From Candidatus Bipolaricaulota bacterium (GTDB lineage Bacteria; Bipolaricaulota; Bipolaricaulia; RBG-16-55-9; DRXL01): a stretch of 64,000 nucleotides of DNA. The notes beneath the pieces are model-generated. The model made no database searches, was not told where the DNA came from, and saw only the letters and a program-made list of their open reading frames with translations. The translations under genes and the position numbers were made by a program. Positions within the stretch are counted from its first letter, which is position 1. Every line of letters begins with the position of its first letter. This document shows, piece after piece, positions 4,657 to 58,541 of this stretch. The stretch covers positions 16,331 through 80,330 of the forward strand of contig CALLJK010000014.1 in the NCBI GenBank assembly GCA_938091745.1. The letters are read 5' to 3'.

Positions 4657-6255
4657 GTGAATAAATATATCTTTGTGACGGGTGGAGTGCTCTCCGGGTT
4701 AGGCAAGGGGATCACGGCGTCGTCGATCGGGCTCTTGCTCAAGTCGCGCGGCCTCACCGTGACCGCCATCAAGATCGATCCCTACTTAAATTGCGACGCC
4801 GGCACCATGAACCCTTATCAGCACGGCGAAGTCTTCGTGCTCGACGACGGCACCGAGGTCGATATGGACCTGGGCAGCTATGAGCGCTTCTTAGATATAG
4901 ACCTCACAGGTGATCATAATATCACGACAGGCAAGATCTATAAGAGCGTCATCGAAAAAGAACGCCGCGGAGAGTATCTGGGGGCAACCGTGCAGATCAT
5001 CCCCCATGTCACCGACGAGATCAAAGCGAGCATCAAGCGCGTCGCAGAACGCACCAAAGCCGACGTGGTCATCGTCGAGGTCGGGGGCACCGTCGGAGAC
5101 ATCGAGTCGATGCCCTTCTTGGAAGCCCTGCGCCAGATGCACCAGGAGCTCGGCGACGATTGTGTCTTCGTGCATACGACGCTCGTGCCCGTGGTCTCCG
5201 TCGTTGGGGAGCAGAAGACCAAGCCGACCCAGCACTCCGTCAAAGAACTTCGTGCTATTGGGATCCAGCCGGATGTGATCATCGGGCGCGGCACGGCCCC
5301 CCTCACCGAAGGGATTCGCAGGAAGATCGCGCTCTTCTGTGACGTCCCGTTTGAGGCCGTCATCAGTGCCCCCGATGTGCACTCGATCTATCAGGTCCCG
5401 GTGCTCTTCGAGGAGCAAGGGTTGCCGGAGCTCTTGCTGACGCGTCTGAAGCTCCCAGCCAAGGCGCGCGATCTGAGCCAGTGGCAGCGCTTCGTCGATG
5501 CCGTGCTCCATCCCCAGGAGCAGGTGCGCATTGCCATTGTCGGGAAATATACGATGCTCCGCGATAGCTATGTCAGTTATGTCGAGGCGCTCACGCACGC
5601 CGGAGCGGCTCTCGGCGCTGGGATCGAGATCGTCTGGATCGAAGCCGAAGAGTTCTCCGAGTCCCACATGGAGGGCATAGACGGCGTGATCGTGCCTGTG
5701 GGGTTTGGCCATCGTGGGGCTGAGGGCAAGATCAGGGCGATCCGCTACGCGCGGACGCACAACGTGCCGTTCTTGGGGATCTGCTATGGGTTTCAGCTGG
5801 CAGTCATAGAGTTTGCGCGCTCCGTACTGCATTTAGAAGGTGCCAACAGCACCGAGTTTGGTCCGACAGAGCACCCCGTTATCGATCTGATGCCGGAGCA
5901 GCGATCGCTTACTGAGAAGGGCGCGACGATGCGCCTGGGAGCTCAGCCCGTTATGATCGAGCGCGGCACGCTTGCGCATAAACTCTACGGAGCGACAGAG
6001 ATCTCCGAGCGCCACCGCCATCGCTATGAAGTCAACCCGCGCTACGTGAGAGACTTAGAAGCTGCTGGGCTGAAGTTCTCCGGCAAATCGCCCGATGGGC
6101 GACGCATGGAGATCCTAGAACTGCCAGGGCATCCGTACTTTATTGCGTCGCAATTCCACCCGGAGTTTACGTCGCGGCCGACTCGGCCGCGCCCGCTCTT
6201 TGTGGGTCTGGTACAAGCATGTCTCGCGCGTCGCAAGCTCTTGGTCTCCTCGTGA
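4657..6255 (+). CDS. pyrG: CTP synthase
   Basis: [27 protein letters not shown]-terminus and the C-terminal glutamine amidotransferase motif GICYGFQ. In-frame GTG at 4657 gives a canonical ~533-aa protein; the track ORF starts upstream at 4567. Confidence 0.9.
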
Positions 6256-6749
6256 CTGTGGGGGTCATCGGCGGGATCTCTTGGCTGTGGGTGACCATGC
6301 CCAGCTTGTGGCCAGAGACTCTCGGGCCCGATGCCCCGGCGATCTCCGCCGAGCACGCTCATATTGTCCGATACGACCAGGGAAAGAAGCTGTGGGAGCT
6401 GGAAGGGCGCACGATGACCGTCCAAGAAGATATCAGCGTTGCTGAAGAAGTGACGGTGCGCTTCTTCGACAGCGACGGCACTGAGACGCTTACTGTACAA
6501 GCGCCTCAGGCGCGCTTACACAATCGTTCTGGAGATATCGAATTGCTTGGAGAGATCTCTGCTGTCGGCCGCGAGTTCTCTTTTGTCACGGAGAATCTCT
6601 CGTGGGATAATCGAAAGAAAGTGCTCACAACGTCGTCGGCTGTGCGCATCGAGCATGACACGTTCACCCTGACGGGTCGGGGATTGGAATACTTCTCGGG
6701 CCGAGCGACGATCCTCAACGACGCTCGGCTCATCTTGCGCCGAAAATGA
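6219..6749 (+). CDS. lptC: LptC-like periplasmic LPS-export bridge protein (single N-terminal TM + OstA-like beta-jellyroll)
   Basis: 176 aa with an N-terminal TM ([18 protein letters not shown]) followed by a beta-rich domain. Sits immediately upstream of, and overlaps, lptB (ATGA-type junction at 6746). Confidence 0.5.
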
Positions 6750-7465
6750 TCCTCCGCACAGAAGGGTTGGTCAAGAGCTATGGAGGACGGCGGGTCGTCG
6801 ACGGCGTCTCTCTCCACATTGAGAGTGGCACCGTTGTCGGACTATTGGGAGCCAACGGTGCGGGCAAGACCACCACGTTCTATATGATCACTGGGCTGAT
6901 CGCTCACGAAGCTGGGGAGATCTTTCTCGACGAAACCCCTATTGGCCGCTGGCCCTTCTATGCCCGTGCTCGTCTCGGGATTCACTATCTGCCCCAAGAG
7001 CCTTCAGTCTTTCGCAAGCTCAGCGCTCTAGAGAATCTCTTGCTCGTCTTAGAGCAGTGGGAATTCAAGCCCAAAGAGCGTGAGCGGCGCGCCCTGCAGC
7101 TCTTGCAGAAGCTGGGCATCGTGCATCTGGCGCGGCAGCGCGTCGATACGCTTTCAGCGGGGGAGCGCCGGCGCGTCGAGATCGCGCGGGCCTTAGCGAC
7201 CTCCCCGAAATTTCTCTTGCTCGATGAACCCTTCTCCGGGATAGATCCCATCTCTGTCGCTGATATCCAGAAGATCATACGCGCGCTCGCCGCCGACGGG
7301 ATTGGCGTCGTCGTGACGGACCACAACGTGCGTGAGACCCTGCGCGTCACTGACTATGCGTATCTCTTGAATGAGGGCAAGCTCTTGCTGAGTGGACGCC
7401 CAGAAGAGATCGCGGCGCATCCCCTGGCGCGACAGTATTATCTTGGTGAAGACTTTCAGCTATGA
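6746..7465 (+). CDS. lptB: LPS export ABC transporter ATP-binding protein LptB
   Basis: 239 aa. Walker A GANGAGKTTTFYMITG, signature LSAGERRRVEIARAL, Walker B LLLDEPFSGIDP. Size and position after lptC are typical of LptB. Confidence 0.8.
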   Translation: MILRTEGLVKSYGGRRVVDGVSLHIESGTVVGLLGANGAGKTTTFYMITGLIAHEAGEIFLDETPIGRWPFYARARLGIHYLPQEPSVFRKLSALENLLLVLEQWEFKPKERERRALQLLQKLGIVHLARQRVDTLSAGERRRVEIARALATSPKFLLLDEPFSGIDPISVADIQKIIRALAADGIGVVVTDHNVRETLRVTDYAYLLNEGKLLLSGRPEEIAAHPLARQYYLGEDFQL

Positions 7466-8314
7466 CCCCGATGACGGTGCTACAGCTGGCTTGCGCACGT
7501 AAAGTCTCTTCATCACGATGAACGCGCCAAAGATCACGACGAGAATGACGCTGATGACTTGGGCAGCTCGTAATAGATCGGGGACGAGCCAGAGCGCATC
7601 TGCCCGCAGAAACTCCATCCAAAACCTCAAGACCGAATAGAGCACAATATAGAGCGATGCGATGAACCCATCTTGAAAGTTTTTCGTGCGCAGCCACATG
7701 AGCAGACCAAAGATTATGAGATCGCCGACCATCTCGTAGAGCATCGTAGGGTGAGTAGGGATATCGCCCCATTGCTGATACCCTGGAGTGCCCTCTTTAT
7801 ACACAACCCCGACCCAGTCGAGCCATGAAGGCCAGGTCGGTCCCAGGGGCACCCCATAGGCGTCGCCGTTCATAAAGTTTCCGAAGCGCCCCAGGGCTTG
7901 TCCCAAGATCATGCTTGGCGCCACAGCGTCGGCAAACTGCCACAGGGGGACTTTCTTCCATTTCGAGTAGACCCAGAGCATGAGCAGCCCCGCCAAAATG
8001 CCCCCGTGAATAGCCAGCCCACCTTCCCAGATCGCAATAATATTTATAAACGTCTTCAGGGCATCGCCGGGAACATAGAAATTCGACCACTGAAAAGCGA
8101 CATAATAGAGCCGCGCCCCGATGATCGCCACGGGCACGGTGATCAAGACGAAGTCTAAAATATCATCAAGGGTCAGGGGTAAGCCCTTGCGTGCGGCCTC
8201 GCGGCGCGTCAGAAAGATCCCCACGACAATGGCAATCACGTACATCAACCCGTAATAGCGTATCTGAATAGTGCTTCCCCACGGCATCGGGATCTCTATC
8301 AAGATCGGATTCAT
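7460..8314 (-). CDS. lgt: Prolipoprotein diacylglyceryl transferase
   Basis: Conserved Lgt motifs: YGLMYVIAIVVG, ARLYYV, and the Lgt signature GxxxGRxGNFxNGxxxG in GQALGRFGNFMNGDAYG. Start set at the internal ATG (MNPILIEIP); the track ORF extends to 8395. Confidence 0.85.
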   Translation of the reverse strand: MNPILIEIPMPWGSTIQIRYYGLMYVIAIVVGIFLTRREAARKGLPLTLDDILDFVLITVPVAIIGARLYYVAFQWSNFYVPGDALKTFINIIAIWEGGLAIHGGILAGLLMLWVYSKWKKVPLWQFADAVAPSMILGQALGRFGNFMNGDAYGVPLGPTWPSWLDWVGVVYKEGTPGYQQWGDIPTHPTMLYEMVGDLIIFGLLMWLRTKNFQDGFIASLYIVLYSVLRFWMEFLRADALWLVPDLLRAAQVISVILVVIFGAFIVMKRLYVRKPAVAPSSGS

Positions 8315-8425
8315 TGGTTCTATCCCCCTCGTATCTGTTAAGTACGAGCGATTGTACGCGATAGGCTGACCCGGCGTCAAGCAGGACTTGAGCATGGACG
8401 GCCTGACCCGTAAGATAGAGGCGTC

Positions 8426-9304
8426 ATGATGCCTGATCTGGGGATTATGGGATTGGCTTTGGGGGCAGGGATTGTGGCGTTCTTTAATCCTTGCGGGTTT
8501 GCTCTACTTCCGTCGTACGTCGCGCATTACTTGGGGAGCCGTTCAAGCCCTTCAGACCGCTCAGAGCGGTGGTGGGAGCGCCTATGGTACGGCTTGGCGC
8601 TCGGCAGTGCCGTCAGTGCCGGGTTCTTTACAGTCTTTCTCGCTTTGGGCATTGTGATCTCTCTTGTGGGAACAGCTATTGGTTTTTACTTTCCCTGGGC
8701 CGTTGGGCTTCTTGGGCTTGGCTTAATGGCTCTAGGAGTCTTCACGCTTCTAGGGCGCCAGCTGGCTCTTTCGCTGCTCTTCCAAGCCCGCTCAGATCGT
8801 CGGAGTGTCTTCTTCTATTATCTTTATGGGATCGGCTATGCGATAGCATCATGCGGCTGCACGTTCCCCATCTTTATGATCTATGTCGTCGGGCCGACCT
8901 TGACAGCGGGCCTCCTCAGCGGGCTGGTGAACTTTCTCGCCTACGCGTCGGGGATGACGTTGATGATGCTGTTGCTCTCTCTCACTATAGCGTACTCCAA
9001 GGGCAGTCTCGACCGCCGTCTGCCCCTCAGGCACGCCCTCATCGGGGTGAGCATCCCCATTGGCATCGTGCTGGTGTTGGTGTGGGCGCAGCCGCAGCTT
9101 GCTTCGAGCTGGAGCGCAGCATTCTCTGGAACTAACCGCATCTTCATCAGCGTCTTCGCCATCGCGCTTCTCGCTCTGCTCTTCTTTCAGCTGCGGCGCT
9201 GGGAGCGGGCCACGCACTGGCTCAATGGGCTTCTGCTTGTTGCGGCCGGGCTGTATCTCATCTACTATCAACTGTTCGAGTATGGGCTGCTCGACTTCAG
9301 ATAA
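8426..9304 (+). CDS. ccdA: Cytochrome c-type biogenesis / thiol-disulfide transporter CcdA (DsbD family) membrane protein
   Basis: 292 aa polytopic membrane protein with the DsbD-family Cys motif FFNPCGFALLP in TM1 and a second Cys pair (SCGCTFP). Confidence 0.6.
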   Translation: MMPDLGIMGLALGAGIVAFFNPCGFALLPSYVAHYLGSRSSPSDRSERWWERLWYGLALGSAVSAGFFTVFLALGIVISLVGTAIGFYFPWAVGLLGLGLMALGVFTLLGRQLALSLLFQARSDRRSVFFYYLYGIGYAIASCGCTFPIFMIYVVGPTLTAGLLSGLVNFLAYASGMTLMMLLLSLTIAYSKGSLDRRLPLRHALIGVSIPIGIVLVLVWAQPQLASSWSAAFSGTNRIFISVFAIALLALLFFQLRRWERATHWLNGLLLVAAGLYLIYYQLFEYGLLDFR

Positions 9305-9307
9305 TTT

Positions 9308-10864
9308 ATGATGCTTCGGGCGATCTTAGCTCTGCTTGCGGCTCTCTTGGCGTTGCTCAGTATGCCCGGCTATCTCTTTGGCGGGCTGATCTTTATCGCG
9401 CTCGTGCCGCTCTTCTTTGCTCTTGAGAAGAGCGTGCCACGTCAGGGGTTCTGGCTAGGATATTTGTGCGGGTTTGTGTTCTTTGCTCTGCTCTTATATT
9501 GGATCTACACGCTCTGGGACTGGGCTGGGGGGTTCACCGTCTTTGGCCATCTGATGCTGGCAGGGGTGTTGGCGTTGTGGTGGGGGCTGTGGGGCACAAG
9601 TGTTTGTCTCATGCAAAGGCGATTCCCTCACGCCCTAACGATTCCTGCTGTTTGGGTCTTCTTGGAATATTTGCGCTCACTGACGAAGTTCGGGTTTACG
9701 TGGGGTTTTTTGAGCGATGCCCTCTCTCAGTATCCCTCGCTGATTCAGATTGCTTCGCTGACAGGGACGTGGGGGATTTCGTTGCTCATCGTTCTTGTGA
9801 ATCTTCTTCTCTATCGCGCGCTGCGCCAGCGGCGTCTCTTCTATGGGGTATTCGCTATTGGGCTGATTGCGCTCGATTGGGGCTGGGGAGTCTATCAGCT
9901 GAGTCTCTCTCAGCCGCGGGGAGCGCCGGTGCGTATAGCCGTGGTGCACTCGAACGTCCTGCAGCGCGCCCGCAGCGATCCAGAACAGCTCTCATATATT
10001 CAGAATCTCTATCTCTCTCAGCTAGAGCACCTGCGCGCTGAAGAAGTTGATCTCGTGATTCTGCCGGAGTCGATTGTGCCGGCATATGTGCTCCGGCAGC
10101 CAGACCTTCTTCAGCCCTATCAAGAGCACGCGCAGCGCCTTGGTGCCGCGCTCATCGTAGGGACGATTGACTATCGCGACGGCAAGCTCTTCAATACAGC
10201 GGCTCTCATCGCGCCAGATGGGGAGATCGCTGATCTCTATGACAAAGTTCAGCTTGTGCCCTTCAGCACCGAGTATTTTCCGTTGATCGGGCTGCTGCGC
10301 CGTATAGAGAATCTGATCGGACCGTTACCGCTGGGGGCGCTCACGCCGGGGGAAAGGTTCCATCCTTTGGCCCTCACCCCTGACCCCTCTCCCGTGGCTC
10401 ACCCACGGGAGAGGGGTGGCATCAACCGGGGTGAGGGCCTTCGCCTCGCTACCCCGATCTGCTTCGAGTCGATCTTCTCTCACATCAGTCGAGCATTTGT
10501 CAGACATGGCGCCCAAGCCATAGCGATCATTACCAACGACGCCTGGTTCAAGGGCTCCAAAGCTCTCGAGCAACATTTTGCTAAAGCCGTCTTTCGCGCT
10601 GTCGAGACCGGACGCTACACCGCGCAAGCGTCCAACGGCGGTATTTCCGGGGTGATTGATCCCTACGGGAGAATTCTTACAGCAACGCGCTCTGAAAGAG
10701 AGCAGATCCTGCAGGAGACGATCTTCCTGCAGGATCACGCGACGCTCTACGTGCAGCTCGGAGATTGGGTCGTCTATCTGTCAGGGTTAGTTTTAGCGGG
10801 CATCATATTCGTTCCTGTGCTTGTGAGCTTCGTCACCGCGCCCGTCAAGAGAGAGACTTTATAG
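9308..10864 (+). CDS. lnt: Apolipoprotein N-acyltransferase (carries an in-frame palindromic-repeat insertion)
   Basis: 518 aa. N-terminal polytopic membrane domain plus C-terminal CN-hydrolase domain (RIAVVHSNV..., ...PICFESIF with catalytic Cys). Sits directly downstream of lgt/ccdA. Confidence 0.8.
   Translation: MMLRAILALLAALLALLSMPGYLFGGLIFIALVPLFFALEKSVPRQGFWLGYLCGFVFFALLLYWIYTLWDWAGGFTVFGHLMLAGVLALWWGLWGTSVCLMQRRFPHALTIPAVWVFLEYLRSLTKFGFTWGFLSDALSQYPSLIQIASLTGTWGISLLIVLVNLLLYRALRQRRLFYGVFAIGLIALDWGWGVYQLSLSQPRGAPVRIAVVHSNVLQRARSDPEQLSYIQNLYLSQLEHLRAEEVDLVILPESIVPAYVLRQPDLLQPYQEHAQRLGAALIVGTIDYRDGKLFNTAALIAPDGEIADLYDKVQLVPFSTEYFPLIGLLRRIENLIGPLPLGALTPGERFHPLALTPDPSPVAHPRERGGINRGEGLRLATPICFESIFSHISRAFVRHGAQAIAIITNDAWFKGSKALEQHFAKAVFRAVETGRYTAQASNGGISGVIDPYGRILTATRSEREQILQETIFLQDHATLYVQLGDWVVYLSGLVLAGIIFVPVLVSFVTAPVKRETL
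10369..10439. repeat. GC-rich nested palindromic repeat element copy A, inserted in-frame within lnt
   Basis: Outer inverted repeat GGCCCTCACCCC...GGGGTGAGGGCC encloses inner inverted repeat CCCCTCTCCCGT...ACGGGAGAGGGG. Same family as the copies at 19002-19114 and 54555-54602. Confidence 0.8.
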
Positions 10865-19001: not shown

Positions 19002-19114
19002 GGCCCTCACCCCCGACCCCTCTTACCCTCACCCCTTCGAGTCCCCTCTCCCCTCCGAGGGAGAGGGGAAGGGGTGAGGGGGGCAAGAGGGGTGGCGCAG
19101 CCGGGGTGAGGGCC
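19002..19114. repeat. GC-rich nested palindromic repeat element copy B (intergenic between convergent S8 protease and ligA; probable bidirectional terminator)
   Basis: GGCCCTCACCCCC...GGGGTGAGGGCC outer inverted repeat with inner CCCCTCTCCCCTCCGAGGGAGAGGGG hairpin and a second nested ACCCTCACCCC/GGGGTGAGGGGG pair. Ends 3 nt from the ligA stop. Confidence 0.8.
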
Positions 19115-42299: not shown

Positions 42300-43587
42300 T
42301 ATCGTTATACGTGACGAGCAGAATTAGCCCGATCAGAAGAATAAACCCGATGTAGTGAATGAACCCCTCTTTGTCAGGAGGAATGGGCTTTCTGCGGATC
42401 ATCTCGATGAGCAGAAAGAGAATCCTGCTGCCGTCGAGCGCCGGGATCGGAAGCAGATTGAACAACCCCAAATTGAGGCTTAACACCGCGATGATCAGCA
42501 ATAACGACATCAAACCAAACTGCAGGGACTGCCCTATGACCTCGAAAATCCCCAAGGGGCCTCGGACTTCACTGGTCGCTTGTCCCAGGCGGCTCGGCAG
42601 ACTCTTCAACCACTCGACAATAGCGACGACTGTATCCCACGAGCGCTGTGCCCCCACAGCGATAGCCTGTCCAAATGACGGGCGGCGCATGAGGACCTCC
42701 GGCTCAAAGCCGCTGAAAAGCTCTAGTTCTGTGCGCCCGGCTGCTTCTATAGTGAGCGTGAGCTGCTGTTCCCCGCGCTGGACGACAAGCACAGCAGTCT
42801 GAGCATTGAGCAAGAGCTCGCGCATCTGCCAGAAGCTCCAGATGGGTATATTGTTAATTGAGAGTATGCGGTCGCCGGCTTGCAGCCCCTGTTGAGCTAA
42901 GAACGAATTTGGCTCAAGCTTGGCAATCACTGTACTCGTAGAGACGGGCGCGAACTTGACCCCGATGATATAGCGTCCGTCGCGCTCCGACCACACGGGC
43001 TGTACCGTCACCGAGCGATGCTCGTCATTGCGCAACAACTCTAGCGTGATCACTTGGCCGCCGGAGGCACGAATGAGCTGCTGCAGCTGTTGGGCCGAGT
43101 AGATCGTTCTCCCATTGACTCTCTCAATTCTGTCACCAACTCGGACAATTCCTTGAGATGGGCTTGGTGTGCCATCGGGCATAGGGACGAGTTCGGCGAC
43201 TTCTAAGTAGGGCAGCCCAAACGCTCCCACAATCAGGATCATCAGAAAGATCGCAGCGATGATGTTCATCACCGGTCCAGCGAAGACAATAATCATTCGT
43301 TGCCAGGCGGGCTTGGACGTGAAGAGGCGCTCTGTGGGGACGGCTTGGTCTTCGGCGCTTTCGCGGTCCTCCCCAGCCATGCGCACGTAGCCCCCGATAG
43401 GGAAGATTCTTATGGAGTATTCGGTCTCGCGGCCCTTGCGCCGCCAGATGGACGGCCCCATGCCAATAGCAAACTGATGGACCCACACACCAAAAAGCCG
43501 CGCCGCGGCAAAATGCCCCCATTCGTGAATGAGCACCAAAAACCCGATAGTCACTACAAACGCGATGAGCGTAAGGAAGATACTCAT
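42277..43587 (-). CDS. rseP: RIP metalloprotease RseP (site-2 protease, M50)
   Basis: HEWGH zinc motif in TM1, PDZ domain, LDG motif (PIPALDGSRI). Confidence 0.8.
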   Translation of the reverse strand: MSIFLTLIAFVVTIGFLVLIHEWGHFAAARLFGVWVHQFAIGMGPSIWRRKGRETEYSIRIFPIGGYVRMAGEDRESAEDQAVPTERLFTSKPAWQRMIIVFAGPVMNIIAAIFLMILIVGAFGLPYLEVAELVPMPDGTPSPSQGIVRVGDRIERVNGRTIYSAQQLQQLIRASGGQVITLELLRNDEHRSVTVQPVWSERDGRYIIGVKFAPVSTSTVIAKLEPNSFLAQQGLQAGDRILSINNIPIWSFWQMRELLLNAQTAVLVVQRGEQQLTLTIEAAGRTELELFSGFEPEVLMRRPSFGQAIAVGAQRSWDTVVAIVEWLKSLPSRLGQATSEVRGPLGIFEVIGQSLQFGLMSLLLIIAVLSLNLGLFNLLPIPALDGSRILFLLIEMIRRKPIPPDKEGFIHYIGFILLIGLILLVTYNDIMRFFGK

Positions 43588-43596
43588 ACTGCTCCT

Positions 43597-45006
43597 TCAG
43601 ATTCGTTCGGCTTTGATTTCTAAGATCCGGTGCGTCCGAGGCGTCACACGATACGATTCGTTGACGGCCTGGCCGACGATCCATATTACTGTATTCTCAT
43701 CACAAATCAAGGGGATGGCATCGCGGGCCTCGCGGGGGATTTTTCTATCAACGAAAAAGTCTTGTAATTTCTTTGTGCCCTCCTTCAGGGAGATGCAATC
43801 CCCAGGACGGCGATTGCGCACGACTAAGCTGCCGCAAATCTTGTCAGCGTCGAGGAGGACCAAAGACCTAACCCCCAACCCCTTCCCTGAAAGGGAAGGG
43901 GCTCTCCCCTCCCCGTGCCGGGGAGGGGCCGGGGGAGAGGTCAGCTTCATCTGCAATCTCCAGCCGATCTCTGGGATGACCGTCTCGCCGGGCACAGTGA
44001 GTAAATACTCAAAGCGCTTTGGGGCCGGAGCCGGACGCGTCGTGATAATCAATTGAGCATGGCGGCGCAGCACCCTCACGCCGGCGGGCAGATGGAGTTC
44101 GCCCGTGCCGTGACGGGCAACCCACCCTAAGACAGCTTCGATGTGATCAGCTTCCAGCTCGCCCTGGAGCGCATAGACAGCTTGACGCAGCACGAGCGCC
44201 TGCAGATACTCAGAGAGTTTCAAGAACTTCTTCAAATCAAGCGCAAGCTCGTATGCCTTTTGCTCGCAGAGAAGCTCTTTTAACGCTTGGTCGGCTTCAC
44301 GCTCCAGATGCTGGGCAGCCTGGCCGAACAGTCGCGCCGTCCGCCCTAATGATTGAAGCAGATTTGGGTTGTACTCTTTCAAAATGGGGATCAGCTCGTG
44401 GCGGATCTTATTGCGCACGATCTTGGTGTCATAATTCGTTGGGTCTTCACGCCAACGGAGTTTGTGAACTTTGGCATAGGCTTCGATCTGCTCGCGGGTG
44501 CACTCGATCAATGGGCGAATATACTGACAGTGCTCACTAGAGCGTACTGGGGGAATCCCAGCAAGCCCTTCGAGCCCAGAGCCGCGCACGAGTCTCATCA
44601 GGAGCGTTTCAGCTTGATCGTTGAGCGTGTGCCCCAATGCGATTTTATTGAATTTATGAGCGTGAGCTGTCTTCTCGAGAAACTGATAGCGCAGCTGCCG
44701 TGCCGCGACTTCGAGCGAGAGCTTGTTCGCTTTGGCATAGGCGGGCACGTCAGCACGCTCTGTGTAAAACTGCAGTTTCAGCGAAGAAGCGAGCTTTTTG
44801 ACAAACTCAGCATCTTGAGCTGACTCTGGGCGAATGCCGTGATCGAAGTGCGCTACAGCGAGCGTGAGCTTCAGCTCTCTTTTGAGTTCTTTGAGCACAT
44901 GGAGCAAGACGACCGAGTCCACGCCGCCGGAGACGGCCACGAGCACGCGATCTCTGTTTTCGAGCATGGCGTAGCGCGAGATAGTCTTGCGGACTTGGTT
45001 GAGCAT
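43597..45006 (-). CDS. tilS: tRNA(Ile)-lysidine synthetase (carries an in-frame palindromic-repeat insertion near the C-terminal domain)
   Basis: PP-loop VLVAVSGGVDSVVLLHVL. C-terminal TilS domain (VVRNRRPGDCISLKEGTKKLQDFFVDRKIP). Confidence 0.8.
   Translation of the reverse strand: MLNQVRKTISRYAMLENRDRVLVAVSGGVDSVVLLHVLKELKRELKLTLAVAHFDHGIRPESAQDAEFVKKLASSLKLQFYTERADVPAYAKANKLSLEVAARQLRYQFLEKTAHAHKFNKIALGHTLNDQAETLLMRLVRGSGLEGLAGIPPVRSSEHCQYIRPLIECTREQIEAYAKVHKLRWREDPTNYDTKIVRNKIRHELIPILKEYNPNLLQSLGRTARLFGQAAQHLEREADQALKELLCEQKAYELALDLKKFLKLSEYLQALVLRQAVYALQGELEADHIEAVLGWVARHGTGELHLPAGVRVLRRHAQLIITTRPAPAPKRFEYLLTVPGETVIPEIGWRLQMKLTSPPAPPRHGEGRAPSLSGKGLGVRSLVLLDADKICGSLVVRNRRPGDCISLKEGTKKLQDFFVDRKIPREARDAIPLICDENTVIWIVGQAVNESYRVTPRTHRILEIKAERI
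43871..43940. repeat. GC-rich nested palindromic repeat element copy D (variant subfamily), in-frame within tilS
   Basis: CCCCTTCCCTGAAAGGGAAGGGG hairpin followed by CTCTCCCCTCCCCGTGCCGGGGAGGGGCCGGGGGAGAG nested palindrome. Encodes SPPAPPRHGEGRAPSLSGKGLGV on the tilS strand. Confidence 0.7.
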
Positions 45007-54530: not shown

Positions 54531-54554
54531 AGTGATCTCCTTGTATTATGCTCG

Positions 54555-54602
54555 CCCCTCTCCCGTAGATTGCCTACGGGAGAGGGGCACGGGGTGAGGG
54601 CC
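54555..54602. repeat. GC-rich palindromic repeat element copy C (truncated; intergenic inside an operon)
   Basis: CCCCTCTCCCGTAG-ATTGC-CTACGGGAGAGGGG hairpin followed by CACGGGGTGAGGGCC. Shares its inner and right-outer modules with copies A and B; the left outer arm is absent. Confidence 0.75.
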
Positions 54603-55639: not shown

Positions 55640-55972
55640 TCAAAAATTCTTCAGATACTTAAAAACTTCCATCAGCTCGTCGATCTTCTCCTCGCCCTTG
55701 CCTGATTGAATCGCTTCGGTAAGACAGGTCTGCATATGCCCTTTAGTCAGCATTTGCGCGATCTGGGAGAGCGACGCCTGCACCGCTGCGATCTGTTTTA
55801 AGATCTCGACGCAATACTCTTCGTTTTCGATCATCGTCTCGATGCCCTCGACGTGGCCGCGCACCGTGCGGATGCGCCGCAACAGATCGCGCTTCATCTG
55901 CGGCAGATGCTGGAGCCCGCCGCGCTTGTGAGTCTCTGCATGTGTTGGCATAGCTTGCACTCCTCTCTTCAA
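55640..55972 (-). CDS. csoR: CsoR/RcnR-family metal-sensing transcriptional repressor
   Basis: [36 protein letters not shown] carries the W-X-Y-Z Cys/His signature of CsoR. The ATG overlaps the copA stop (ATGA). The true start may be an internal ATG. Confidence 0.75.
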
Positions 55973-58458
55973 ACAGCTATGAGCGGCGCACGGAATCTCC
56001 GCAGGCGCAGCGCATTTGAGACAACGCTCACGCTCGAAAGCCCCATCGCCCCAGCAGCCAGGATCGGGTTGAGCAGCCCCAACGCTGCTACGGGGATGAG
56101 CACCGTGTTATAGATAAACGCCCAGAAGAGATTCTGCCAAATGTTTCTCACCGTCGCGCGGCTGAGGGCGATCGCCGTCACGACCCCGCGCAGATCCCCG
56201 CCGACTAAAGTAATGTCTGAAGCTTCCATCGCGACGTCGGTGCCCGTGCCAATAGCAATCCCGACATTAGCCTGCGCGAGAGCGGGCGCATCGTTGATCC
56301 CGTCGCCGACCATCGCCACGCGCTTCCCTTGGGCTTGCAGCTTTCTCACTATGTCGGCTTTTTCATGGGGCAAGATCTCAGCGAAGACCTGCTCGATCCC
56401 GACTTGCCGAGCGATCGCTTCGGCAGTCTTTTTGTTATCCCCCGTGATCATCACGACTTCTAACCCTAAAGCCTTCAGGGCAGCGACGGCTTCACGCGCA
56501 CCCTCTTTCACAGTATCAGCGATAGCAAGCACGCCAAGTGCTTTGCCGTCTTGGGCGACGAAGACCGGCGTCTTGCCCTGGGCGGAGAAACGCTCAGCGT
56601 GCTCGAGCAGCCCGTCGAGCGCGACTTTTTCGTCGCGCATCAGTTTTAAATTGCCTACGAGCACCCGATGGCCGTTGAGGCTCGCGCGGATACCGTGTCC
56701 GGGGACAGCAGCAAACTCGCGGGCTTCTGCGAGCGCGAGATTCTTCTCATGCGCATACTTCACGATCGCTTCGCCCAAAGGGTGCTCAGACCCTCTCTCG
56801 ACAGAGGCCGCCAGCTGCACGAGCTGCTCTTCAGAGACTCCTGATAGGGTCACTATGTCTGTGATTTCGGGGCGGCCCTTGGTCAGCGTGCCTGTCTTAT
56901 CTAAGACAATGGTCGTGAGCTTATGCGCCGTCTCGAGGGCATCCCCACCCCGAATTAAGATGCCGTGCTCGGCGCCCTTGCCCGTGCCGACCATGATGCT
57001 CGTGGGCGTCGCTAGCCCCAGCGCGCACGGGCACGCGACTATCAAGACCGCGACAAAGTTCAGAAGAGCTTTGGTCAGTGCTGGCTGCGGCCCAAAGAAG
57101 TACCAGCCCACAAACGTCACAATCGCGATGAGAATCACAGCGGGGACGAAGTAGCTCGCGATCACATCAACGAGCTTAGCAATGGGAGGCTTGGTGCTCT
57201 GAGCCTCTTCGACAAGCTTGATGATCTGTGCGAGAGCTGTTTCGCTCCCGACTTTTGTTGCTCGGAACGCGAACGAGCCGGTCTTGTTGATCGTTGCGCC
57301 GATGACTTCATCACCAGGACGCTTTTCGACGGGGAGCGACTCCCCTGTGATCATGGACTCATCGACTGCTGAAACGCCCTCGATGACGATGCCGTCCACG
57401 GGGATCTTCTCGCCAGGACGAACTACAACAATATCGCCGACTTGGACGTCTTCGATGGGGATGTCTCGCTCTTGTCCATCGCGGATGACGCGAGCGGTCT
57501 TGGCTTGTAAGCCGATGAGTTTCTTGATCGCTTCAGAGGTGCGCCCCTTGGCGCGGGCTTCGAGCAATCGTCCCAAGAGAATCAGCGTGATGATCGCGGC
57601 TGACGTGTCAAAATACAAGTCCATGTGCCCGTGCGTGCTGAAGAGCGGCAACAGCGCGCTGTACCCGTAAGCTGCCGTCGTGCCCACGGCAATAAGCGTG
57701 TTCATATCTGTCGTCTTGTTGCGCAGAGCGGCCCATGTGCCGCGATAGAACTGCCAGCCTGCCCAAAACTGCACCGGCGTCGCCAAGAGCAACTGTAAGA
57801 GATAATTGAGCTGATCGGGGATGGGCAGCTTCAGCCCCAGCATCCCTGGGTACATCAAGAGAAAGATCGCTATCGTGAGCGCCGCAGAGACGATGAGCTT
57901 GCGGCGCAGCTGTGCTTCGTAATCTTCGTGATGCTGTGCGTGCGCGTCGGGCTTCTCTTCGGGAACGTCATAGCCAATGCGGCGCACGGCCTCTTTCAGT
58001 TTCTCAACTGTGACTTGGTTTGCCGCGACGCGCACGGTCGCTTTTTCAGCGGCAAGATTGACGCTGGCGTCCAAAACACCGGGGACGCTCCTGAGGGCCT
58101 TTTCGACTTTGGCGACGCAGCTGGCACAGCTCATGCCTGAGATGGGGAGGGTGAGGAGACCTACCCCTCTGGCCCCCTCCCCTCCCTCTTTAGGGGAGGG
58201 GCTGGGGGAGAGGTTCTTACGCAAGCGTCGCTCGTCTTCTTGCGCGTCTTCGCTGAGTTCCTCGGCCTCGTAGCCAGCATCTGTGACAGCTTGCGTTAAG
58301 CTCGCTATTGAGACGCCCTCGCTGTGCTCAACTTCAGCACGGCCGCGCTCCAGCGAGACGTTTACTCTGTGAACGCCCGCGACGCCTTGCAAAGCTTGCG
58401 TCACAGACTTGACGCAGTGCTGGCAGCTCATCCCTTTGACTTTTAGGATCGTCTTCAT
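55969..58458 (-). CDS. copA: Copper-translocating P1B-type ATPase with two N-terminal HMA domains (carries an in-frame palindromic-repeat insertion between the HMA domains)
   Basis: Two GMSC(Q/A)(H/S)C HMA motifs, CPC ([11 protein letters not shown]), [13 protein letters not shown]. Start likely the internal ATG ([15 protein letters not shown]); the track ORF extends to 58506. Confidence 0.85.
58147..58213. repeat. GC-rich nested palindromic repeat element copy E (variant subfamily), in-frame in the copA inter-HMA linker
   Basis: CCTCTGGCCCCCTCCCCTCCCT-CTTT-AGGGGAGGGGCTGGGGGAGAGG imperfect palindrome. Encodes [22 protein letters not shown] on the copA strand. Confidence 0.7.
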
Positions 58459-58541
58459 AGTGATTCTAATCCCCCCCACGAGGGGTGGGTTAAAGTATAG
58501 CGCCAACTCCCTCGGATGTCAAGCCCCCGCCATGTGTGCCC

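Follow-up and report, generated by a model that had tools for sequence, protein, structure and literature searches.

Most probably, the palindromic segment within tilS of this Bipolaricaulota genome is a copy of a dispersed, GC-rich, nested-palindromic repeat resembling REPs and MITEs, selfish or at least non-adaptive, which is tolerated in a surface loop of the TilS protein. Five copies of the family lie in the window (the whole 64-kb stretch of DNA analysed), and the three in lnt, tilS and copA are in frame with the gene. As shown by comparison of orthologous sequences, distant TilS proteins lack the element, and in the near Bipolaricaulota clade the same loop carries differing combinations of family modules, even between tilS genes that are about 98% identical.

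The first-pass annotation of this DNA had placed a palindromic family member in frame inside tilS, at 43871-43940, in an ORF that remained open and had conserved motifs on both sides of the insert. All of this was borne out; the coordinates were right within a few bases, and the full 78-nt nested palindrome with its outer inverted repeat occupies 43865..43942. The host gene and the parts of the element are as follows.

43597..45006, minus strand: tilS, tRNA(Ile)-lysidine synthetase, type I, 469 aa (PF01171, PF09179, PF11734, TIGR02432, TIGR02433)
43865..43942: complete palindromic element, type 2 of the family, 78 nt or 26 codons (from the sequence, a repeat finder and the nested fold)
43865..43876: left outer inverted-repeat arm GACCTAACCCCC, partner of 43931-43942
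43879..43901: hairpin 1, CCCCTTCCCT gaa AGGGAAGGGG, perfect 10-bp stem with 3-nt loop (inverted repeat I2)
43906..43928: hairpin 2, CCCCTCCCCG tgc CGGGGAGGGG, perfect 10-bp stem with 3-nt loop (inverted repeat I3)
43931..43942: right outer inverted-repeat arm GGGGGAGAGGTC, partner of the left arm 43865..43876
43870..43938, minus strand: codons for SPPAPPRHGEGRAPSLSGKGLGV, residues 357-379, the element-encoded loop, predicted to be disordered

The product of the 469-aa tilS frame scored above the cut-offs of its family models (TIGR02432, 221.3 bits versus 93.6; TIGR02433, 49.2 bits versus 20.2) and matched PF01171 and PF11734 with E values of 1.8e-61 and 1.9e-14, respectively. The PP-loop ATPase motif SGGVDS (residues 26-31), which is invariant in the alignment, lies upstream of the insert; LDADKI, RNRRPGD and the helix-turn-helix P424-R428-P432 lie downstream. 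PxxxRxxxP is the acceptor-stem helix-turn-helix motif of CTD2, the acceptor-stem recognition domain of TilS (PMC11947777). Alignment of 47 orthologues gave 58 invariant columns, which flank the insert on both sides. The dN/dS ratio was 0.09-0.16 for the N-terminal domain and 0.11-0.31 for the 90 codons after the insert, and this range of 0.09-0.31 across domains suggests that the TilS of the window is a functional type I enzyme. Outside the insert, TilS is under purifying selection and is confidently modelled. By analogy with other bacteria, tilS and lnt are probably essential genes. Every orthologous locus retrieved whose sequence reaches these neighbours keeps the gene order ruvB-tilS-rseP-ispF.

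The source is evidently a metagenome-assembled genome and dispersed repeats confuse assemblers, so that an assembly or binning artefact, or a tilS pseudogene, had to be considered. It is extremely improbable: an independent ENA assembly (ERZ6863514, locus L001, protein 97% identical) contains identical insert DNA, which argues against an assembly artefact; the frame was kept in all 44 near-clade homologues whatever the cassette length (NCBI, JGI, ENA and Logan); and the sequence on either side of the insert is under purifying selection.

Across 43865..43942 the element is ordered GACCTAACCCCC-AA-(CCCCTTCCCT gaa AGGGAAGGGG)-CTCT-(CCCCTCCCCG tgc CGGGGAGGGG)-CC-GGGGGAGAGGTC, a nested palindrome in which a 12-nt outer inverted repeat surrounds two perfect 10-bp stem-loops. 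Both hairpins have 10-nt arms that are 100% complementary, and the terminal inverted repeats (GACCTAACCCCC versus GGGGGAGAGGTC) pair at 10 of 12 positions. When the whole window was scanned for closely spaced inverted repeats, the two tilS hairpins were the sole true stem-loops of such quality, the remaining matches being short overlapping palindromes. Folding of an 89-nt stretch over the element produced one three-way nested structure. The coding strand folded as RNA with -63 kcal/mol (z = -4.2) and the DNA fold had -32.6 kcal/mol (z = -5.3); neither was equalled by any of 200 shuffles. An Rfam search of 43500-44300 returned no family at threshold (best 28.7 bits versus a gathering score of 68), and the sub-threshold eukaryotic miRNA hairpin models that span 43865-43942 were rejected as shape matches to a long hairpin. 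The terminator/promoter scan gave no terminator-like site on either strand at 43865-43942 and no promoter-like site at the element, which has no T-run of the kind that follows the GC-rich hairpin of an intrinsic terminator. The window contains no tRNA genes. An intein, intron or other excised intervening sequence was likewise rejected, given the 78-nt length, the lack of an associated ORF or ribozyme match and the in-frame state of every allele.

Besides the tilS copy, the window holds four further members of the family.

10369..10439: type 1 copy in lnt (9308..10864, plus strand), with arms GGCCCTCACCCC ... CCCCTCTCCCGTGG-loop-CCACGGGAGAGGGG ... GGGGTGAGGGCC, in frame
19002..19114: type 1 copy of 113 nt, a palindrome with multiple nesting, in the intergenic DNA where the S8-protease gene and ligA converge
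54554..54602: type 1 copy made of one hairpin (15-bp stem) and the right arm GGGGTGAGGGCC, in intergenic DNA flanked by two genes on the minus strand
58158..58214: type 2 copy with one hairpin, in frame in copA (P-type ATPase, 55969..58506, minus strand)

An in-frame family member in another gene, also claimed from the first reading of the DNA, is present in lnt, and copA has one too. The lnt copy encodes roughly ALTPDPSPVAHPRERGGINRGEGL and ends 5 residues ahead of the conserved TPICFES motif, at a position where most Lnt orthologues have a turn of 3-5 aa; alternative inserts occur in this loop among orthologues, in the same pattern as in tilS. The copA copy is located in the linker preceding the second HMA domain and is read in a frame other than that of the tilS copy. 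L003 provided no empty-site comparison for this copy, as its HMA-ATPase is a paralogue with 38% identity to the window copA. The left outer arm type of the tilS copy is also found at the copA copy (58158-58169), and it flanks copies in L006, L132, L010, L018 and L059. Further family copies are present in orthologous loci, where the copy census is a lower bound, since the purine/pyrimidine-biased hairpin detector missed the lnt and 54554 copies (stems with GTGG and GTAG).

Within the 64 kb, the 9- and 10-mer modules of the family (CCCCTCCCC, GGGGGAGAGG, CCCCTCTCCC, GGGGTGAGGG and others) are found in the five discrete elements and nowhere else, so base composition does not explain family membership. 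The TilS loop is hypervariable in length and sequence generally, as would be expected of an ordinary fast-evolving low-complexity linker whose palindromy and resemblance to other loci are incidental. Such a linker would nevertheless have to account for the confinement of the modules, for two perfect 10-bp stems within a 12-nt outer inverted repeat that 0/200 shuffles fold equally well, and for the recurrence of the two-hairpin architecture in other genes, species and phyla. We consider this explanation highly improbable.

The stems, perfect in the window copy, are highly conserved across phyla, and the 21-mer of hairpin 2 and the right arm occurs in over ten of them. A second copy of the exact 49-nt core with both hairpins was not found in JGI metagenome contigs, and so recent copying of the tilS allele was not demonstrated. 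Neither a transposase nor any other mobilising enzyme was found among the ~27 window ORFs scanned (of ~58). Target-site duplications are absent from the flanks of the tilS copy (CAAAG / AGCTT) and the copA copy (GGAG / TCTT), and the 78-nt tilS sequence contains no GTAG, CTAC, CGTC or GACG. Literature searches with the stem sequences GGGGAGGGG, GGAGAGGGG and CCCCTCTCC returned only unrelated papers (on eukaryotes, vectors and G-quadruplexes), and those on palindromic repeats in Bipolaricaulota returned only CRISPR and defence papers.

The whole 78-nt element is in frame without stop codons and encodes about residues L355-S381 of TilS. Structure modelling, proposed as a check together with ortholog alignment, was run with AlphaFold2 and left the insert disordered and the remainder confident: mean pLDDT was 89.2, and values below 50 were confined to residues 362-379, between strands 349-356 and 382-386. 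The first-pass annotation had assigned the insert to the junction between the catalytic and substrate-binding domains and the C-terminal domain. By Pfam coordinates this holds, the insert falling between PF09179 (256-318) and PF11734 (394-460); structurally it does not, because in the predicted model the insert site is the tip of a beta-hairpin within CTD2 and not a true inter-domain linker. The solved CTD2 structure 3hj7 (130 residues) aligns across 143 columns in Foldseek (target-normalised TM 0.80), and the insert is therefore internal to the CTD2 fold. The best solved relative of the whole protein was 3a2k_A (phmmer 2.6e-63; Foldseek E = 5e-39, TM 0.76), and in the phmmer alignment Geobacillus kaustophilus TilS (GkTilS) is gapped at the insert stretch, by ~14 columns in all. 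The 23-aa insert described earlier corresponds to the peptide at residues 357-379, but it is not a clean addition of 23 aa: the insert-bearing loop is 35 aa long versus an ancestral ~21 aa, and the old loop was therefore partly overwritten. Structure prediction modelled the element-encoded peptide as disordered, and codon comparison showed it to evolve almost neutrally, the dN/dS of the insert being 0.91 against L002, an 83%-identical orthologue; protein-level neutrality of the loop is indicated by a ratio over only 23 codons together with disorder in the model.

Comparison of the same loop across TilS relatives revealed both lineage restriction and turnover. Most homologues of at most 48% identity have a loop of 21-25 aa, so that the segment is not conserved across unrelated TilS proteins; the loop is 20-77 aa long in the near clade (P0001-P0044). 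Among the TilS proteins compared, 20-77 aa loops built from modules of the repeat family occur in the near Bipolaricaulota clade only. In the 80 metagenomic tilS matches listed, loop hairpins of the CCCCTCTCCC or CCCCCTTCCCT type were found only in two near-clade loci, and none of the 78 distant genes among them has an element-type hairpin within the gene; these matches, mostly distant relatives of 31-42% identity, served as negative controls. As to the earlier question of whether related genomes lack the 23-aa segment, they do lack that particular sequence, but most of the near clade carries other family members there. Orthologue DNA has different palindromes at the one site. The tilS genes of L006, L127, L128 and L129 are 97.4-98.6% identical in DNA outside the loop and contain in-frame cassettes of 77, 34, 31 and 65 aa, respectively; four different cassettes in four strains of ~98% identity therefore indicate fast turnover at the site. 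L129 has lost two stretches relative to L006 that are roughly complementary to each other, which points to module exchange rather than point mutation as the probable source of the difference. The L128 cassette closely resembles the window lnt copy, and the right half of the L005 cassette matches the window copy at 19002-19114. Elsewhere in L006, a type 2 copy stands in place of a stop/start junction and fuses two ORFs, in the opposite reading orientation; comparison of this filled site with the empty site of L007 showed that the element replaces 10 nt and duplicates nothing.

This allelic variation bears on two functional explanations. In one, the Pro/Gly/Arg-rich loop would be adaptive at the protein level, modulating acceptor-stem binding or a partner, and cassette exchange would be selected surface variation, for example under phage or toxin pressure. 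Its location in CTD2, the acceptor-stem recognition domain (PMC11947777), would suit such a role, as would the in-frame state of every variant, the several cassette alleles among ~98%-identical tilS genes (two of them, L128 and L129, from one metagenome, JGI sample 3300066320) and the similar behaviour of a second enzyme, Lnt, in the turn before TPICFES. However, frame preservation is already accounted for by purifying selection on an essential gene, the insert is modelled as disordered and its dN/dS of about 0.9 gives no sign of constraint; several clade members have short, element-free loops, and the same elements also occur in intergenic DNA. An adaptive loop is thus very unlikely.

The other would place the function in the nucleic acid, as ribosome pausing between CTD2 strands, transcript stabilisation, attenuation of the expression of rseP downstream, or a G-quadruplex/i-motif. 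The RNA fold is very stable (-63 kcal/mol, z = -4.2), and the stems are perfect and conserved across phyla while the loops are free to vary; that conservation could reflect selection on structure rather than selfish spread, and the G-runs might form G4. Against this, in close orthologues that share the gene order the hairpin is either decayed (L002) or absent (L003/P0006, P0010 and P0035), and cassette content varies among 98%-identical strains. There is no T-run, terminator- or promoter-like site and no Rfam family at threshold, and copies occupy unrelated contexts (the lnt and copA loops, intergenic DNA and a gene junction). We regard a nucleic-acid-level function as very unlikely.

A tolerated, non-adaptive repeat, the explanation that we favour, can be outlined mechanistically. 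The family carries no protein of its own. Its homopyrimidine/homopurine arms (CCCCTCCCC / GGGGAGGGG) have almost no stop codons, a property that may underlie their tolerance, and whichever way round they lie, in more than one reading frame, they would be translated into a Pro/Ser-rich and then a Gly/Glu/Arg-rich stretch, hydrophilic and unstructured. With few stops and such a product, a surface-loop copy whose net length is divisible by three would therefore be nearly neutral and be retained, and other insertions into an essential gene would be purged. In an ancestor of the near clade, the loop probably received a type 1 element, whose arms GGCCCTCACCCC ... GGGGTGAGGGCC are read as ALTP ... 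GVRA. Repeated rewriting of this resident copy would have followed: whole modules would have been swapped with copies elsewhere in the genome (by ectopic recombination, gene conversion or a new insertion into the palindrome already present), and sequence would have been lost in hairpin-mediated deletions. The window's type 2 form with two hairpins may be one outcome of this rewriting. The TilS tree, built by neighbour-joining and carrying no support values, does not clearly distinguish a single ancient insertion from repeated independent ones.

A stronger version of this scheme is possible but doubtful. The tilS and lnt loops would be resident landing pads for an undescribed cross-phylum repeat superfamily without GTAG/CGTC tags, with stems CCCCTCCCC / GGGGAGGGG and CCCCTCTCCC / GGGAGAGGGG and outer arms of the type GGGGGWGAGG, and copies would be actively exchanged by a dedicated hairpin-recognising mechanism, for which an HUH or RAYT-like enzyme or templated gene conversion would be candidates. 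The outcome would be strain-level polymorphism of length and sequence in surface loops of essential enzymes, with occasional gene fusions. A shared and so far undescribed mobilising machinery might lie behind the conservation of the stems across phyla.

Rickettsia offers the best-documented palindromic repeats translated within housekeeping proteins, and scattered cases of intragenic REPs and MITEs are known from other bacteria. The present case adds an uncultured, free-living phylum that branches deeply, and a repeat family that is apparently unrelated. It also amounts to a clean natural experiment in which the CTD2 hairpin tip of TilS and the Lnt turn before TPICFES take up between 0 and about 55 additional residues in many alleles, some of which differ between strains of 98% identity. 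Both loops are thereby marked as insertion-tolerant sites, useful for protein engineering, and the rate of repeat turnover becomes measurable relative to point substitution. Inserts of this kind inflate apparent divergence and give odd low-complexity regions in proteins of metagenome-assembled genomes, and those of this family can fuse ORFs.

Among known systems, the host enzyme is best compared with PDB 3A2K, the Geobacillus kaustophilus TilS-tRNA complex. The two share the three-domain architecture, the PP-loop and the CTD2 PxxxRxxxP motif (TM 0.76), and differ by the ~14 extra residues that the window TilS has in one CTD2 beta-hairpin loop, which are the element-encoded part. For the element itself, bacterial MITEs with in-frame fusions are on record, namely intragenic ERIC, Coxiella QMITE1 and Anabaena MITEs (PMC10969869, PMC5896051). 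Like MITEs, it is non-autonomous, has terminal inverted repeats and can extend or fuse ORFs; unlike them, it has flanks free of target-site duplications, and no recognisable parent insertion sequence turned up in the window; it is also small for a MITE and nearly all stem.

In REPs of the GTAG and CGTC superfamilies, a conserved tetranucleotide tag marks one end of the palindrome (Di Nocera et al. 2013, PMC3733652). The present family resembles intragenic REPs in consisting of short GC-rich palindromic stem-loops in many dispersed copies (five per 64 kb) that are mostly intergenic; a minority occur within coding sequence, singly or as dimers, where they encode 20-30 aa, and tRNA-related enzymes are among the hosts. 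The REP target genes include Lnt of S. alaskensis, and TilS is absent from that list (PMC3733652). The family differs in that GTAG, CGTC, CTAC and GACG are absent at or near the ends of the tilS copy, that no REP-associated tyrosine transposase (RAYT) was found among the ~27 window ORFs scanned, and that its stems are common to more than ten phyla; some REP families are species-specific and others are shared by several species (PMC3733652).

Rickettsia palindromic elements (RPEs) are palindromic repeats that lie in frame in genes (Ogata et al. 2000, 2002, summarised in PMC10969869 and PMC3733652), and they (PMC10969869) and intragenic REP dimers encoding 20-30 aa (PMC3733652) provide the precedent for the tilS insert. 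As with RPEs, the palindromes are dispersed, a large share of them lies in frame in unrelated, functional housekeeping genes at fold-compatible sites, the encoded peptide is compatible with host protein fold and function, and presence varies between related species. The host, in contrast, is a free-living Bipolaricaulota lineage instead of an obligate intracellular alphaproteobacterium, and the copies measure about 50-110 nt versus about 100-150 bp for RPEs, which were first reported at about 150 bp (PMC10969869). The homopyrimidine/homopurine stems probably belong to an unrelated sequence family. Moreover, family members replace each other at one codon position among near-identical strains, a case that none of the RPE reviews consulted describes. 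On the best reading, the element works like RPEs and intragenic REPs, yet belongs to neither.

The tilS element, a 78-nt nested palindrome (43865..43942), reads GACCTAACCCCC AA CCCCTTCCCTgaaAGGGAAGGGG CTCT CCCCTCCCCGtgcCGGGGAGGGG CC GGGGGAGAGGTC in the window sequence. The repeat finder resolved two stem-loops in it, and a scan of the whole window for closely spaced inverted repeats found these to be the only such structures, the remaining matches being short self-overlapping palindromes.

43879-43901: stem-loop 1, 10-nt arms perfectly complementary, 3-nt loop
43906-43928: stem-loop 2, 10-nt arms perfectly complementary, 3-nt loop
43597..45006, minus strand: tilS, type I TilS of 469 aa (PF01171, E = 1.8e-61; PF09179 and PF11734 also match)

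Folded as a single strand, an 89-nt stretch gives one nested three-way structure in which an outer 5+5 bp stem encloses both hairpins. The coding-strand RNA fold of this stretch reached -63 kcal/mol (z = -4.2) and the DNA fold -32.6 kcal/mol (z = -5.3); in each case none of 200 shuffles was as good. The first-pass annotation had placed a palindromic element here, and the sequence, the perfect stems and the shuffles confirm it: the element is real, and chance is excluded as its source. The peptide quoted by that annotation corresponds to TilS residues 357-379 (window 43870..43938), the whole element encoding roughly L355-S381.

The host ORF scored 221 bits against TIGR02432 (cut-off 93.6) and 49 bits against TIGR02433 (cut-off 20.2), and its best solved relative is the Geobacillus kaustophilus TilS (GkTilS)–tRNA complex 3A2K (phmmer, 2.6e-63; Foldseek, 5e-39, TM 0.76). 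Its closest homologues carry the source names Candidatus Bipolaricaulota or Acetothermia. The order ruvB-tilS-rseP-ispF is kept in all related fetched loci long enough to show it, so that comparisons of the tilS loop set orthologue against orthologue. Conserved motifs on either side of the insert, as had been claimed, were evident from 58 invariant columns in an alignment of 47 homologues, which include the PP-loop SGGxDS upstream and R397, G402, D403, K412-L414 and P432 downstream. The helix-turn-helix motif PxxxRxxxP, with which type I TilS recognises the tRNA acceptor stem (PMC11947777), is present as P424-R428-P432. Nei-Gojobori comparison with six orthologues gave dN/dS of 0.09-0.16 for the catalytic N-terminal domain and 0.11-0.31 for the 90 codons that follow the insert. 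It follows that the C-terminal part is constrained and is translated in this frame, in agreement with the earlier claim that the ORF stays open. For the 23 insert codons, a small sample, dN/dS against the 83%-identical orthologue L002 was 0.91, and the insert peptide looks nearly neutral.

The orthologue alignment served to build an AlphaFold2 model (mean pLDDT 89.2), on which we located the insert. The only segment below 50, residues 362-379, is flanked by strands 349-356 and 382-386. The crystal structure of an isolated second C-terminal domain (CTD2) of TilS, 3hj7 (130 residues), aligned with the model over 143 columns, and phmmer paired its residues 45-109 with query residues 385-446; the three strands preceding the insert are therefore part of CTD2. 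The insert is thus modeled as the tip of a beta-hairpin within CTD2, and GkTilS is gapped at this stretch, about 14 columns in all, in the phmmer alignment. The annotated site "between domains" holds for the Pfam match boundaries only; structurally, the insert lies inside CTD2.

For length counts, the loop was delimited by the conserved GWR and D-ADKI anchors. At 48% identity or less, most TilS homologues have a loop of 21-25 residues, typically FELEVLEGSHPxPxxxLEARI. Across the 44 nearest homologues (P0001-P0044, 58-97% identity; hereafter the near clade) the loop varies from 20 to 77 residues because the orthologous DNA holds differing elements, of which the following fetched loci are examples (type 1 and type 2 denote the two arm types of the repeat family).

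L001 (protein 97% identical, independent ENA assembly): element identical to that of the window
L002 (protein 83% identical): same outer arms, one decayed hairpin, apparent relic of an older GGGGTGAGGGCC arm
L005 (P0005): different hairpin within GGCCCTCACCCC ... GGGGTGAGGGCC arms
L008 (P0014): CCCTCTCCC hairpin flanked by CACCCTCACCCC and GGGGTGAGGGG
L006 (P0036): composite element of 231 nt
L003 (P0006): loop of 22 aa without hairpin

Among the 80 metagenomic tilS loci listed, a loop hairpin of this kind occurred in two, both near-clade (71% and 66% identity), and in none of the 78 distant ones. Sharing of the segment across unrelated TilS proteins, which the first-pass annotation had named as counter-evidence, is clearly not observed. 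One distant TilS (L195, 33% identity) carries an unrelated 9-bp GC palindrome, CTGCCGCGG gacgt CCGCGGCAG, at 2599-2621 in the equivalent CTD2 loop; this is probably chance, since about 0.3 such coincidences are expected over 80 loci from the background hairpin rate. In the tilS of P0012 (L012), a second element-like insert, RGVGRGEGPLPSSRTGD, sits away from the main loop at residues about 330-350 of alignment A1, just before the EYLL strand of CTD2, suggesting a second permissive loop in TilS.

The type 1 arms GGCCCTCACCCC and GGGGTGAGGGCC translate as ALTP and GVRA, and loops with the pattern ...ALTP...GVRA... occupy the deepest near-clade branches (P0040, P0039, P0043, P0038, P0034, P0012 and P0003-5) of a neighbour-joining tree computed with the loop masked and without support values, from which we infer that an element has probably resided in the loop since the near-clade ancestor. 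In the window lineage (window, P0001 and P0002), type 2 arms GACCTCTCCCCC ... GGGGTTAGGTC stand in place of type 1, and L132, a separate lineage, also has the two-hairpin type 2 architecture in its loop. Four strains (L006, L127, L128 and L129), two of them from one metagenome, have tilS DNA 97.4-98.6% identical outside the loop; their cassettes all differ (77, 34, 31 and 65 aa, respectively) and are all in frame. Compared with L006, L129 lacks two stretches roughly complementary to one another, which reads as a signature of module exchange or hairpin-mediated deletion rather than point mutation. The cassette of L128 is closely similar to the window's lnt copy, and that of L005 matches the intergenic copy at 19002-19114 in its right half, indicating that the loops draw on a repertoire common to the genome and across species. 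These comparisons also indicate much faster turnover in the loop than in the gene around it.

Five elements in the window share modules that are absent from the remainder of the 64 kb, and three of the five are genic and in frame.

10369-10439: type 1, in frame in lnt (9308..10864, plus strand)
19002-19114: type 1, intergenic, between the convergent S8-protease/CARDB gene (ends 18989) and ligA
43865-43942: type 2, in frame in tilS
54554-54602: type 1, intergenic
58158-58214: type 2, single hairpin, in frame in copA (55969..58506, minus strand), a P-type ATPase

The lnt copy bears out the first annotation of tilS as the second gene to hold a family member in frame. The lnt insert, about ALTPDPSPVAHPRERGGINRGEGL, stops 5 residues short of the TPICFES motif conserved in apolipoprotein N-acyltransferase, at a site where most Lnt orthologues have a turn of 3-5 aa; exactly this turn holds different element-like inserts in several near orthologues (P0122, P0140, P0154, P0127 and others). 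The hot-spot behaviour of the tilS loop is repeated in lnt. The lnt gene is grouped with lptC-like, ABC ATPase and lgt genes (6219-10864), pointing to lipoprotein triacylation and LPS transport, consistent with a diderm (two-membrane) envelope. The 19002-19114 copy is a 113-nt multiply nested palindrome, with three concentric arm pairs around a CCCCTCTCCC hairpin, that fills most of the S8-protease/ligA gap, its right arm ending 2 nt from the ligA stop (19117). The copA copy encodes a peptide in the linker leading directly into the second HMA metal-binding domain; no empty-site copA orthologue was found, the L003 ATPase being a 38%-identical paralogue.

A type 2 two-hairpin element also lies at about 7718-7790 of L006 (minus-strand ORF 6647..8047) and at 8523-8576 of L129. 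In L006 it occupies the exact place of the overlapping stop/start TTGCTATGAG of L007 (8550-8570), between a pterin-4a-carbinolamine dehydratase gene and a PALP (threonine-synthase-like) gene, and fuses the two into one 466-aa ORF; the 98%-identical strain L127 has neither the element nor the pterin domain. The copA and tilS copies use different reading frames, and the L006 copy is read in the opposite orientation to that of tilS. All three encode a Pro/Ser-rich and then a Gly/Glu/Arg-rich stretch, because the arms are homopyrimidine/homopurine with very few stop codons.

The 21-mer GGGGAGGGGCYGGGGGWGAGG, comprising the right arm of hairpin 2 and the outer arm, matched at least 118 DNA stretches in species-representative GTDB genomes (L009-L126). 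Those listed span more than 10 phyla, with hosts including Chloroflexota, Armatimonadota, Cyanobacteria, Betaproteobacteria, Bacteroidota, Planctomycetota, Fraserbacteria, Poribacteria, Gemmatimonadota and others. Among the matches listed, 103 of 123 occurrences have the complementary arm CCCCTCCCC 3-8 nt upstream and therefore form the same hairpin as in tilS, with freely varying loop sequences. The second hairpin, CCCTTCCCT ... AGGGAAGGG, is also upstream in 12 of the 123, and L010, L018 and L059 have the outer arm ACCTAACCCCC too.

Taken together, these results show that TilS, constrained and otherwise normal, carries a disordered loop translated from a dispersed palindromic repeat, at a site that is lineage-specific and turns over quickly. 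The tilS copy would be a tolerated passenger, with purifying selection on an essential gene enforcing frame and lack of stop codons. Surface loops would be the only permissive insertion sites, and a resident palindrome may promote further exchange with other copies. At the sole comparable filled/empty site pair (L006 versus L007) the element replaces 10 nt, and no transposase was found among roughly 27 window ORFs scanned.

In-frame "protein-coding palindromes" are established for Rickettsia palindromic elements (RPEs) (PMC10969869), and for several other bacteria there are catalogues of intragenic REPs, single or dimeric, that encode 20-30 aa, with hosts that include tRNA-related enzymes and one Lnt (PMC3733652). 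The tilS element works like these but differs in host and sequence and is not a member of either. It lacks the GTAG or CGTC tag that defines REPs, and, unlike a MITE, shows no target-site duplication in its flanking sequence, nor does the copA copy. We found no published account of this repeat family in the searchable literature, though one may still exist. What appears new is that different family members replace one another at one codon position among near-identical strains, in two enzymes, and that the stems of the family are conserved across phyla.
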